NCBI GenBank assembly: GCA_009693575.1
Contig: SHWZ01000002.1
Coordinates: 16,929 to 80,928, forward strand
Length of the DNA stretch: 64,000 nt
Source of the DNA: Flavobacteriaceae bacterium
Lineage (GTDB): Bacteria > Bacteroidota > Bacteroidia > UKL13-3
Reading direction: 5' to 3'
Positions 23,097 to 64,000 of this stretch are shown in pieces. A program made the translations under genes and the position numbers. Below the pieces are notes generated by a model that saw only the letters and a list, made by a program, of their open reading frames with translations, searched no databases and was not told the origin of the DNA. Position 1 is the stretch's first letter, and each line of letters opens with the position of its first letter.

Positions 23097-25034
23097 TTAT
23101 AGAGTTTCTGACAATTCGGCAGCTTTATGTTTGATGATATCAACGATGGATGGGTCGAGCAAGGTGGTTGTGTCGCCAAGGTTTGAAGTATCTCCTTCGG
23201 CAATTTTACGCAAGATACGCCTCATGATTTTGCCGCTGCGTGTTTTTGGCAGACCTGGCACAACCACAATCCTGTCAGGTCGGGCGAAAGCCCCGATTTT
23301 TTCGAACACAAGCTTTTGGGCTTCAGTAGTCAATATGGAGGCATTATCAATCTTTGCATTGCAAATAACAAAAGCAAAAATGCCCTGCCCTTTGATGTCG
23401 TGGGGGAATCCAACCACTGCACTTTCCACAATTGCTGGGTGTTCATTTAGTGCATCCTCTATTTCGCCTGTGCCTATGCGGTGCCCCGAAACATTGATGA
23501 CATCATCTACACGGCCAGTGATTCGATAGTAGCCGTCAGCATCACGCTTGCAACCATCACCTGTAAAATAATAGCCTGGATACGTTGAGTAATATATATT
23601 TTTAAATCGTTCGTGATCGCCATAAACGGTACGAGCCATTCCAGGCCAAGGGAATTTCATACAGAGATTTCCTTCCACATTATTCCCACTGATTTCTTCG
23701 CCTCTTTCATTTAACAAAACTGCCTGCACGCCCGGAATTGGCAGTGTTGCGTATGCAGGTTTCAGTGGTGTAATTCCGGCCAAAGGCGAAATCAAGATGC
23801 CGCCAGTTTCGGTTTGCCACCATGTGTCCACTATTGGGCAGTTTCCTTTGCCCACATTTTTATGGTACCACTCCCAAGCTTCTTCGTTGATGGGTTCGCC
23901 CACACTTCCAAGCACCCGCAGGCTGTCCAGCTTTTTGCCTTCAAACCATTTCGTACCCTGTGCCTCCAAAGCACGGATGGCAGTAGGTGCAGTATAAAAT
24001 ATATTAACCTGATGCTTGTCCACGACTTCCCAAAAGCGTCCTGGGTCGGGCCAGTTCGGGATGCCCTCAAATAAAACTGTAGTAACACCATTCAGCAGCG
24101 GGCCATATACCAAATAGCTGTGCCCAGTGATCCAGCCAATGTCGGCAGTACACCAAAATATCTCATGCCCGCTTTGTGGCCTGAATACTTCATTGAAAGT
24201 ATATCCGGCATACACCATGTATCCGCCTGTTGTATGCAACACTCCTTTGGGCTTGCCTGTACTACCCGAAGTGTAAAGTATAAACAATGGGTCTTCTGCT
24301 TCCATTGGTTCGGCTAGGCAATCTGATGAGGCAGTTTCCAACAATTCATGCCACCAAAAATCACGGCCTGCCTGCATAGTCACAGGTTCGTTTCTATTGT
24401 TAAATACAATGGCTTTTATTGCTCCATTCTGCTGTGGAGAGCTGATGACTGTGAGGTCTGCCATCGCTTCATCGGCAATCTGCTTTAGCTCAATTTTTTT
24501 ATCACCTCTGAAAACTGCATCGGCGGTTATGAGCAATGTGCAGCCACAATCATTAATCCTATCAGCAAGCGACTTGGCTGAAAACCCCCCAAATACCACG
24601 TTATGAATAGCCCCAATCCTTGCACAGGCAAGCATGGCAATAGCCCCTTCAGGCACCATGGGCATATATATGCATACTCGGTCACCCTTTTTCACCCCCA
24701 CATCTTTCAATACATTCGCGAAGCAACAAACTTCTTTGTGCAGCTCATTGTAGGTTATCAGTCGACTAGGGGTTTTAGGATCATTGGGTTCCCAGATGAT
24801 GGCAGTTTGATTGCCCCTGATTTCCAAGTGGCGGTCAATACAGTTGTAGCAAAGATTCGTGTAGCCTCCATCAAACCACTTGATGCTTGGTTCAGTAAAA
24901 TTCCACTTCAGGGTTTTGTCCCATTTTTTGAACCAATGAAATTCTGCTGCTTTATCTTCCCAAAATACTTCAGGATTGGCTATTGCATGTGCATATACTG
25001 TTTTGTATTCTTCAAAATCACTGATTTGCTTCAT
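23097..25034 (-). CDS. acs: Acetate--CoA ligase
   Basis: YTSGSTGKPKG, WCTADIGWITGHSY, VDTWWQTETGG, YFTGDG and PKTRSGKIMRR. Confidence 0.97.
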   Translation of the reverse strand: MKQISDFEEYKTVYAHAIANPEVFWEDKAAEFHWFKKWDKTLKWNFTEPSIKWFDGGYTNLCYNCIDRHLEIRGNQTAIIWEPNDPKTPSRLITYNELHKEVCCFANVLKDVGVKKGDRVCIYMPMVPEGAIAMLACARIGAIHNVVFGGFSAKSLADRINDCGCTLLITADAVFRGDKKIELKQIADEAMADLTVISSPQQNGAIKAIVFNNRNEPVTMQAGRDFWWHELLETASSDCLAEPMEAEDPLFILYTSGSTGKPKGVLHTTGGYMVYAGYTFNEVFRPQSGHEIFWCTADIGWITGHSYLVYGPLLNGVTTVLFEGIPNWPDPGRFWEVVDKHQVNIFYTAPTAIRALEAQGTKWFEGKKLDSLRVLGSVGEPINEEAWEWYHKNVGKGNCPIVDTWWQTETGGILISPLAGITPLKPAYATLPIPGVQAVLLNERGEEISGNNVEGNLCMKFPWPGMARTVYGDHERFKNIYYSTYPGYYFTGDGCKRDADGYYRITGRVDDVINVSGHRIGTGEIEDALNEHPAIVESAVVGFPHDIKGQGIFAFVICNAKIDNASILTTEAQKLVFEKIGAFARPDRIVVVPGLPKTRSGKIMRRILRKIAEGDTSNLGDTTTLLDPSIVDIIKHKAAELSETL

Positions 25035-62776: not shown

Positions 62777-64000
62777 TCACGCCTCCGCATACGCTTCCGT
62801 AGGTATGCATGTACATATCAGGTTGCGGTCGCCATGGGTATTGTTTATGCGTCCCACACTTGGCCAGAACTTGCGTTCCTTCACCCACGGCAAGGGGAAG
62901 GCTGCCTTCTCACGGCTGTAGGCATGGTTCCATTCGTTCGCGATCAAAACGCTGGAAGTGTGCGGAGCATTTTTCAATACATTGTCGAGCTTGTCGGCAG
63001 CACCGGTGGCTATCTCGTCTATCTCTTTTCCTATGCTCAACAAGGCTTCACAGAAACGGTCGAGTTCGGCCTTGGTTTCGCTTTCTGTCGGTTCTATCAT
63101 CAAGGTGCCAGCCACAGGGAAGCTCACGGTTGGAGCATGGAAACCGTAGTCCATCAGTCGTTTGGCGATGTCTTCCACTTCTACGCCAAGGCTGTTTTTA
63201 TACTTACGCATGTCCACAATCATTTCGTGGGCACAGGTGCCGTTGCTGCCTGTGTAGAGTATATCAAAATGCTTTTCAAGCAGGGTCTTCATGTAGTTGG
63301 CATTCAGGATAGCATAGCGGGTGGCGTCGGTCAAGCCCTTGGCACCCATCAAACGGATATATACATAACTGATGAGCAATATACTGGCAGAACCCCATGG
63401 AGCAGCGGAGACAGCTCCGGTGGCTTTGCTCCCCTCTCCCTGTGGAGAGGGGCTGGGGGTGAGGTGTACATGCCCTGGCAAGAAAGGAATCAAATGGCTT
63501 TTTACACCAATTGGCCCCATGCCAGGACCACCGCCACCGTGGGGAATGCAGAAAGTTTTATGCAAGTTGAGGTGGCATACATCTGCCCCAATGATGGCAG
63601 GACTAGTAAGTCCAACCTGTGCATTCATATTTGCTCCGTCCATATATACCTGACCACCGTGTTGATGGATGATGTCACATATCTGGTTTATGGTTTCCTC
63701 AAATACTCCATGGGTGCTTGGGTAAGTCACCATGAAGCAAGCAAGATTGTCTTTGTATTCTTCGGCACGGGCTTGCAGGTCGGCCACGTCTATGTTCCCG
63801 TTGGGGTCGGTTTTGGTCACCACTACTTTCATGCCTGCCATCACGGCACTGGCGGGGTTGGTGCCGTGGGCAGAAGCTGGAATCAATGCCACATTGCGAT
63901 GTGTTTGTCCTATGCTCCTATGGTATTCGCGAATTACAAGGAGACCTGCATACTCACCCTGGGCACCAGCGTTAGGCTGCAAGGAAACGCCATCAAAGCC
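62777..64000 (-). CDS. gcvP: Glycine dehydrogenase (aminomethyl-transferring), 5'-truncated by the window edge
   Basis: [56 protein letters not shown] and IEPTESE. Confidence 0.97.
63431..63464. repeat. REP-like palindrome located in frame inside gcvP
   Basis: CCCCTCTCC-CTGT-GGAGAGGGG stem plus CTGGGGGTGAGG tail; encodes [11 protein letters not shown]. Confidence 0.75.

Follow-up and report, generated by a model that had tools for sequence, protein, structure and literature searches.

A short dispersed hairpin repeat within the intact gcvP reading frame of a Flavobacteriaceae bacterium

The window analyzed here is a 64,000-nucleotide (nt) stretch of contig SHWZ01000002.1 from a Flavobacteriaceae bacterium (assembly GCA_009693575.1), and it ends inside gcvP, the gene for the decarboxylating glycine dehydrogenase, or P-protein, an essential enzyme of glycine cleavage. 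The C-terminal 407 codons of gcvP occupy positions 62777..64000 on the minus strand, with an E-value of 2.7e-184 against the Synechocystis P-protein 4lgl. The gene runs past the window end, and its full open reading frame (ORF) on the contig is 955 amino acids (aa) long, without a stop. Approximately 30 residues past the pyridoxal phosphate (PLP)-lysine motif HLNLHKTF, the GcvP sequence contains an insert that coincides with a copy of a short dispersed repeat, the subject of this work. In the following, coordinates are those of the window unless a contig is given, G000 is the genome that holds the window, the other G-numbers are genomes of its family, and C-numbers are contigs.

The full copy of the repeat lies at 63419..63471 on the plus strand and is composed, in this order, of an inner flank (GGTGGCTTTGCT), a hairpin, a spacer, a third arm and the letters TGTACAT. 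The hairpin (63431..63452, without strand) is perfect: its C/T arm CCCCTCTCC and its G/A arm GGAGAGGGG form 9/9 pairs around the loop CTGT, and as single-stranded DNA it folds at -10.4 kcal/mol. The plus strand continues with CTGGGGGTGAGG, ending at 63464, which comprises the spacer CT and the third arm GGGGGTGAGG (63453..63464, plus strand). In the gcvP copy, this third arm mirrors the G/A arm at 9/9 positions and is a potential triplex arm. On the minus strand, the gcvP coding sequence over the repeat reads CAC CTC ACC CCC AGC CCC TCT CCA CAG GGA GAG GGG AGC, an open frame devoid of stops. Protein and DNA alignments with the closest relatives, which have the nine codons AVVDMKNGD at this place, delimited a translated insert of 14 codons (63428..63469, minus strand). 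The perfect 9-bp palindrome and the intact frame that the original prediction had described in gcvP are thus both present.

A covariance model (R1) built from 19 aligned copies of the repeat recognized the gcvP copy over 53/53 model positions, with a score of 50.7 bits and an E-value of 3.6e-13; nhmmer also found it, at E 1.4e-8. A hairpin pattern and an arm pattern each matched the window once and gave no match in 100 dinucleotide shuffles, with 2-3 mismatches allowed. As the GcvP loop is naturally variable in length, one might argue that it is a native loop that is palindromic by chance, or else that the segment is an artefact of assembly or binning. The shuffles and the model E-value speak against this explanation, as does the replacement of the ancestral sequence relative to related genes described below. 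In addition, the insert DNA is letter-identical across three independent assemblies (NCBI, ENA and Logan) and is therefore no assembly artefact. The probability of a native loop or an artefact is negligible.

Comparisons with related proteins showed that the long loop is a derived state. In 29 relatives, the loop conforms to PGHAVVDM(K/G/Q)-----xGxxAxxAVSAAP, and the two closest insert-free relatives, which are 86-87% identical, read AVVDMKNGDKATH, aligned as PGHAVVDMK-----NGDKATHAVSAAP. At the DNA level, CAT GCA GTG GTT GAT ATG AAA AAT GGC GAC AAA in relatives corresponds to CAT GTA CAC CTC ACC CCC AGC CCC TCT CCA CAG GGA GAG GGG AGC AAA in G000. The event was thus not a clean insertion: nine ancestral codons gave way to 14, with a net gain of 5 aa. 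The short ancestral loop without the palindrome is found in 106 of the 108 GcvPs of the family, and the five additional residues only in those of G000 and G005, the latter from another genus. The longer loop is therefore lineage-specific and not ancestral, as had been anticipated.

The G005 loop reads AVVDM-GLTPALSIGEGAG-AVSAAP and is encoded by GGCCTCACCCCCGCCCTCTCCATAGGAGAAGG. Its repeat copy, CCTCACCCCCGCCCTCTCCATAGGAGAAGG (LTPALSIGEG), is located five codons downstream of the G000 site and replaces other ancestral codons; the model recognized it (30.2 bits, E 3e-5 / 1.2e-7) in the same orientation and frame as in G000. G021, a congener of G005, retains the ancestral loop. A deletion could not restore the short state, since the ancestral letters were overwritten, and G000 and G005 thus represent two independent gains. 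A third gcvP copy, a perfect GGCCTCACCCCAACCCTCTCCAAAGGAGAGGGGGG scoring 43.9 bits, is present in the interdomain linker of a sister lineage (GCA_945906825.1; L077), where it encodes LTPTLSKGEGG; the AACTAAA-type heptamers directly after it encode TKNSELKTKNS (L077:2798-2905). In the lineage of the window, this linker is GQTPVTLSLSKGTTHIS, for which the model gave no match at E <= 1, though approximately half of its letters match by eye. All three gcvP copies share the reading CTC ACC CC(N), i.e., L-T-P. At all three sites host codons were replaced and none duplicated, and the units are single-ended.

The gcvP gene of G000 (contig C61) is a mosaic with respect to that of L077. The two are identical or almost identical over a tract of ~2 kb that includes the loop insert and extends from gene nt ~1858 to ~1 kb beyond the stop codon, and they differ at 10-30% of sites upstream of the gene and in its 5' two-thirds. 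The shared tract looks like the product of a recent recombination that carried the insert between lineages. Co-conversion centered on the element was considered and rejected: the tract is not centered on the element (nt 2178), and ordinary recombination explains it equally well.

The repeat has other copies in the genome, in keeping with the original prediction. G000 (2.44 Mb, 43.8% G+C, 86 contigs, ~92% complete) contains ~27 dispersed copies, with 27 found by nhmmer at E < 0.3 and 27 by the covariance model. Pattern searches of the same genome returned 24 loose hairpin matches, and 19 copies when the tail was included as well. The consensus is (t)gcatttgc-CCCTCTCC-N3-4-GGAGAGGGG-TT-GGGGTGAGG-tc, and a sub-type is characterized by the inner flank atgtgcca and 8-nt arms. 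The unit is ~40-53 nt long and consists of a short inner flank (GCATTTGC-like), a C/T arm, a loop of 3-4 nt, a G/A arm, a 2-nt spacer and a G-rich mirror arm. Over 20 copies, this tail mirrors the G/A arm at 163/172 positions (T being accepted opposite A), compared with a mean of 119 and a maximum of 132 for shuffled tails. The lengths of arm and tail also co-vary, 8-nt arms going with 8-nt tails and 9-nt arms with 9-nt tails, and the A-to-G arm variant GGGGAGGG pairs with the tail GGGGTGGGG. The repeat had no match in Rfam. We consider it likely, with a probability of roughly 85%, that the gcvP segment is a solo copy of this short, non-coding selfish or parasitic repeat, which landed in gcvP and is merely translated along with it.

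Long ORFs contain nine of the 27 copies in frame, and for eight of these Pfam named the host; the ninth, a GAF-like ORF without a Pfam match, was named from its sequence and its conserved orthologues. In GcvP, the peptide includes PSPSPQGEG and is found in the loop after the PLP-lysine. The other hosts are a GH92 protein (PLSFGKGSEVR), an E2 acyltransferase (ASPLSFGEGQGEAT, in a linker), a class I fumarase (HLSTGEGQCEA, inter-domain), a GT4 glycosyltransferase (PPPRSGEGWGGV, inter-domain), isoleucyl-tRNA synthetase (IleRS; STPSPQERGG), Mfd (KPSPSAIIGGRGEVI, a weak copy), the GAF-like protein (SLMGRGS) and a Na+/solute symporter, in which the copy forms the C terminus (PTSPQPLSTGEGQMQ*). By chimeric-query searches of eight relatives followed by alignments, each in-frame site was found to correspond to extra residues compared with relatives, which supports the earlier proposal that new protein loops are built from selfish repeats in this lineage, in the manner of Rickettsia palindromic elements (RPEs). 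The copy at the GH92 site is common to G000 and G005. Six of the nine in-frame copies are oriented one way and three the other way.

None of the other ~18 copies is part of the frame of a confirmed gene. Copies are strongly depleted from coding DNA, with 9/27 in genes when 91% of the genome is in frames of at least 120 codons (binomial p ~1e-13), as would be expected if purifying selection removed most insertions into genes. In two unrelated proteins, the sequence LPFGVG(W/H) is found near unit copies, namely, in IleRS (G000:C48, ...ERGGSLPFGVGWGN...) and at the C terminus of the GAF protein (G000:C45, ...CGLPFGVGH*), a possible sign of an additional short, G-rich repeat or of an extended version of the unit.

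The structural context of the insert helps to understand how it is tolerated. In an AlphaFold2 model of a gcvP allele with two inserts (predicted TM score [pTM] 0.86, alignment of 52 sequences), the predicted local distance difference test score (pLDDT) is below 50 at residues 443-455, the linker insert, and at residues 736-744, PSPSPQGEG. Both segments are placed between confident elements as low-confidence coil, in agreement with the loops foreseen by the original prediction. Relative to the sister lineage, gcvP has 170 synonymous and 27 non-synonymous codon differences, and its frame, catalytic motifs and purifying selection are intact despite the insert. The PGH-to-SAAP loop measures 14-26 residues among 120 GcvPs from many phyla, and its lengths are unequal in solved structures too; it is evidently a permissive site. 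The insert thus maps to the most length-variable loop of GcvP, which is modeled as a disordered coil.

The same loop contains other peptides of unusual composition in distant GcvPs. Those of Nostocales and other cyanobacteria (P0002-P0047, P0061, P0086, P0097) have IQENNPKSKIQNPK-type peptides, e.g., NPKSKIQNPK, and other GcvPs carry EPETRNPEP or PDPNTQNPDP. These peptides resemble translations of short repeats, tandem or dispersed, from other families, and the loop seems to be a general landing pad.

The letters of the repeat might themselves favor its tolerance. The C-run and G-run arms would be stop-free in five of six frames, with either orientation encoding Pro/Ser/Leu and then Gly/Glu/Arg. 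A flexible, hairpin-like loop would be expected from such arms, with the result that copies would survive only in loops, linkers and termini. Conversely, one may ask whether the element has been co-opted, i.e., whether selection in gcvP acts on a folded nucleic acid (a hairpin or triplex, in either DNA or mRNA) or on the Pro/Gly loop of the protein, with a role in translational pausing during folding, in regulation or as a new interaction surface. The gcvP copy is letter-perfect, its mRNA hairpin is stable, it follows the PLP-lysine by ~30 residues, and the same loop was hit twice independently, all of which might be expected of a selected feature. However, 106 of 108 relatives lack the insert, the fold energies are ordinary for their composition (z -1.9 and -1.4), and the same unit is found in eight unrelated proteins and in intergenic DNA. 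Moreover, the loop is hypervariable in all phyla and has other repeat-like peptides in cyanobacteria, which argues for permissiveness rather than function. Co-option is therefore improbable, and most likely the insert does nothing useful for GcvP.

We also determined how widely the repeat is distributed. The model matched 22 of 119 genomes of the family, belonging to seven genera, with copy numbers that include 32, 27, 16, 15, 8 and 6. More than 120 stretches contained the exact string CCCTCTCC-N3-4-GGAGAGGGGTTGGGGTGAGG; their sources were Bacteroidota, Proteobacteria (Xanthomonas, Pseudomonas and Hyphomonas), Acidobacteriota, Chloroflexota, Planctomycetota, Cyanobacteria, Armatimonadota and others. 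By chance, 27 fixed bases would be expected ~1e-4 times in 596 Gb. We regard this combination of patchy presence, copy bursts and letter-perfect occurrence in many phyla as a signature of mobility. In the cross-phylum sample, 14 of 126 exact copies lie in long open frames, at least three of them in real genes as judged by Pfam. In MiaB of a Chryseobacterium metagenome-assembled genome (MAG; L091:2479-2509), an insert of ~50 residues made of several unit-like pieces is located inside the radical S-adenosylmethionine (SAM) domain. The head domain of a CCA-adding/poly(A) polymerase-type enzyme of a Ferruginibacter MAG (L109:2982-3345) is split by four tandem units of ~37 residues, each ending with PSPPERGWGEV, and the third Pfam-confirmed host is a TIR-NB-ARC protein of an Anaerolineae MAG.

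The three-arm design of the unit is reminiscent of the PIT/BoxC/TMECO intrastrand triplex motifs, whose consensus in Escherichia coli is CCCTCNCCC-N3-6-GGGNGAGGG-N3-GGGNGAGGG (Holder et al. 2015, PMC4666352). The 23 copies of E. coli K-12 are all intergenic, have no reported link to mobile elements and form triplexes in vitro; the report makes no mention of Bacteroidetes, of coding or in-frame copies, or of DUF559 (PMC4666352). Both types of repeats have C-tract, G-tract and G-tract arms of broadly similar letters (CCCCTCTCC-N3-4-GGAGAGGGG-TT-GGGGTGAGG in our case), tens of dispersed copies, no known transposase and local sequence turnover. Compared by eye with the E. coli consensus, composition and layout are alike, with the register shifted by one base (CCCCTCTCC versus CCCTCNCCC) and a spacer of 2 nt rather than 3 nt. 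In contrast with the published motifs, one in three G000 copies is in frame within a gene, and DUF559 cassettes have this unit at their ends, as detailed below. As judged from its sequence, the unit belongs structurally to the PIT/BoxC/TMECO class, and triplex formation is a potential property here.

The in-frame copies in turn resemble RPEs, which are described in a recent summary as elements of ~100-150 bp that encode a conserved peptide of 30-50 residues and are restricted to Rickettsiales (Ogata et al. 2000, as summarized in PMC10969869). Like RPEs as presented in that summary, our units are lineage-specific, dispersed palindromes found in frame in unrelated housekeeping genes, where they add surface segments compatible with the fold. 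In contrast to the same description, the unit is ~40-53 nt long, encodes 12-15 residues in several frames, has a mirror arm, occurs in many phyla and has a Bacteroidota MAG as its host, and there is no sequence relation. The nearest named GcvPs carry the label "Bacteroidota bacterium", in line with this host. In its mode of action, the unit is comparable to an RPE, yet it falls outside the RPE family. It also differs from a miniature inverted-repeat transposable element in that it is single-ended and lacks two terminal inverted repeats and a target-site duplication.

Hitherto, evidence for the colonization of housekeeping proteins by in-frame palindromes has come almost entirely from Rickettsia, and a 2024 review called it merely "conceivable" outside that genus (PMC10969869). 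The present case extends the process to a free-living Bacteroidota lineage and to a different class of repeats, which is found in many phyla and has been described as strictly intergenic in E. coli, and it includes three separate hits in one enzyme. It provides a concrete source of lineage-specific loops in conserved proteins and calls for caution on the part of annotators and structure predictors.

Two genes for DUF559 (PF04480) proteins are present in G000. One of them (C24:11311-11697) is flanked on each side by inverted copies of the repeat, whose mirror arms are on the outside. When the 46 DUF559 loci of the family were considered together, the density of C/G-tract hairpins is 1.55 per kb within 260 nt of the DUF559 domain and 0.083 per kb beyond 400 nt, a 19-fold difference (Poisson p ~1e-33). 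Such hairpins flank 20 of the 46 loci, 12 of them on both sides. Among 20 of the 25 papers found to mention DUF559, no title or abstract suggests a link to palindromic repeats. The protein family represents a testable candidate enzyme for repeats whose spread has never been explained.

The original prediction had pointed to a RAYT, i.e., a REP-associated tyrosine transposase acting on repetitive extragenic palindromic (REP) sequences, or to a DUF559 nuclease as the possible cognate protein. The DUF559 part is supported by the bracketing copies. As for the RAYT part, no Y1_Tnp gene scored over the threshold in the ~92% complete G000 genome, the best PF01797 match reaching 17 bits for a cut-off of 23. 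A REP/REPIN-type element moved by a RAYT (an IS200/IS605-like Y1 transposase) would have in common with our unit a short, GC-rich palindrome in dozens of dispersed copies, as well as a small gene bracketed by inverted copies of its presumed cognate repeat (PMC3733652). Unlike in REP/REPIN systems, however, the bracketed gene codes for a Vsr-like PD-(D/E)xK nuclease, DUF559, rather than a Y1 transposase, and the copies are not limited to extragenic DNA. A third, mirror arm also sets the unit apart, and the consensus of the 19 aligned copies does not contain the GTAG/CGTC tag found at the end of REPs (PMC3733652). Mobilization by a RAYT is thus very improbable. The label "REP-like" is therefore loose: the three-arm PIT/BoxC/TMECO type describes the element better, and it is neither a REP/RAYT element nor a sequence relative of RPEs.

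Several DUF559 domains of relatives are located inside open frames of at least 1000 aa. In the leucyl-tRNA synthetase (LeuRS) gene of G081, the in-frame arrangement is (CCTCTCCCCAG-CCCTCTCC-GGG-GGAGAGGG ...) DUF559 (... CCCTCCCC-CTC-GGGGAGGG-CT-GGGGTGGGG-TC), and a solo copy, PPSPPERGQGGEV, is present further down the same gene. At the corresponding site, the LeuRS gene of G080 contains another, different DUF559, delimited by CCTCACTCCT-CCTTCTCC-AGC-GGAGAGGGG and CCTCTCTCC-CCT-GGAGAGGGG-CA-GGGGTGAGG-TT. These two cassettes (L071, i.e., G081:C92, and L072, i.e., G080:C93; minus strand) come from congeneric genomes; their DUF559 sequences are clearly different but occupy one and the same LeuRS position, after GKSSGSSV, and each is capped by triplex-type units. 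This could reflect either recurrent homing to one site or the replacement of one cassette by another. As with homing-endonuclease genes and inteins, a nuclease ORF is thus found in frame in an essential gene at one recurrent site; in contrast with them, there is no splicing domain or intron structure, and the gcvP copy has no nuclease.

The LeuRS cassettes raise another explanation for the gcvP segment, namely, that it is the scar of a full in-frame DUF559 cassette (end, nuclease ORF, end) that lost its ORF and one end by deletion, and was never an independent short unit. That cassettes with the same ends exist in frame in the LeuRS genes of G081 and G080, and that many DUF559 matches of the family lie inside such long frames, lends it some credit, and the replacement of host codons fits an imprecise deletion. 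Nevertheless, the three gcvP copies, in the loops of G000 and G005 and in the linker of the sister lineage, are all single-ended and of the same size, with an inner flank that fits the family consensus and not a DUF559 remnant. Moreover, none of the 108 GcvPs of the family has a cassette, and in the LeuRS of G081 the solo copy and the cassette are at different places. A cassette scar is therefore unlikely, although it is the only rival explanation that keeps appreciable weight. We thus favor a solo repeat read through in gcvP.

As to how solo copies arrive, the lack of a target-site duplication, the replacement of host sequence and the GCAAAGC-like letters shared by one junction with the inner flank would favor break repair or gene conversion templated on another copy, aided by microhomology, rather than cut-and-paste. 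At the inner junction, GGGG-AGCAAAGCC is similar to the inner flank of the element, GGGG-GCAAATGC, as well as to the ancestral GGC-GACAAAGCT. Among possible break-making enzymes, the foremost candidate would be the DUF559 protein, a small Vsr-like nuclease encoded between inverted copies of the repeat. That DUF559 actually supplies the breaks is possible, though we lean toward doubting it. In a more speculative and rather doubtful extension of this scheme, hairpin-plus-mirror-arm repeats of the PIT/BoxC/TMECO type, known for 30 years but without a mechanism, would serve a pan-bacterial selfish system as its recognition sites and ends, with the Vsr-like DUF559 nuclease of ~110 residues as its sole protein. 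Repair from other copies of breaks that arise at these structures, or through them, would spread solo units and cassettes, and the stop-free Pro/Gly arms would let the system colonize essential genes, adding loops to proteins across phyla.

A number of observations weigh against the read-through of a mobile solo repeat or against the part attributed to DUF559. The 900 nt around the loop copy are identical across all available assemblies, such that no insertion event was caught at the strain level, and translation of the peptide is inferred from the intact gcvP frame as its sole basis. The junction microhomology is short and could be due to chance. In the absence of a target-site duplication or defined ends, what we call an insertion could have been a full DUF559 cassette whose interior was later lost. 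On the nuclease side, the second DUF559 gene of G000 (C57) has no bracketing copies, and by a strict rule 26 of the 46 DUF559 genes have no such hairpin. Although DUF559 is more frequent in element-positive genomes (15 of 22) than in element-negative ones (29 of 97; Fisher p 0.0013), which speaks for the link, this association is uncorrected for phylogeny. Finally, DUF559 was found within the 8-kb locus of only 1 of 80 exact copies in the cross-phylum sample, a result that would be expected if solo units disperse. The link between the repeat and DUF559 is thus one-sided, holding from the side of the gene, and correlative.

Two other cases of in-frame repeats, in acs and in a cyclase gene, had been put forward by the original prediction. 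A possible decayed copy is indeed present in acs, a minus-strand gene at 23097-25034, where the plus-strand segment 24411..24463 is read as ...LTVISSPQQNGAIKA... in the protein. It is the third-best site of the window, and the match is marginal (R1 13.8 bits, E 0.061, with filters off). The site coincides with an insertion of 6-10 residues (SSPQQNGAIK) relative to solved Acs structures. The acs segment may thus be an old, decayed copy. The cyclase case was not located, the model giving no other window site at E < 0.8.

Two minor observations concern the repeats of these genomes more generally. G000 has a second dispersed repeat made of AACTAAA/AACTATA heptamers, with 58 loose matches (at most 3 mismatches, counted without a chance control), and a few of these are found within 10-150 nt of triplex-type units, e.g., at C55:23305-23343 and C75:13912-13929. 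In G019 (C37:641-3379), at least eight model matches are spaced ~112-117 nt apart in three clusters, forming a tandem array that may be a repeat protein or a non-coding array.

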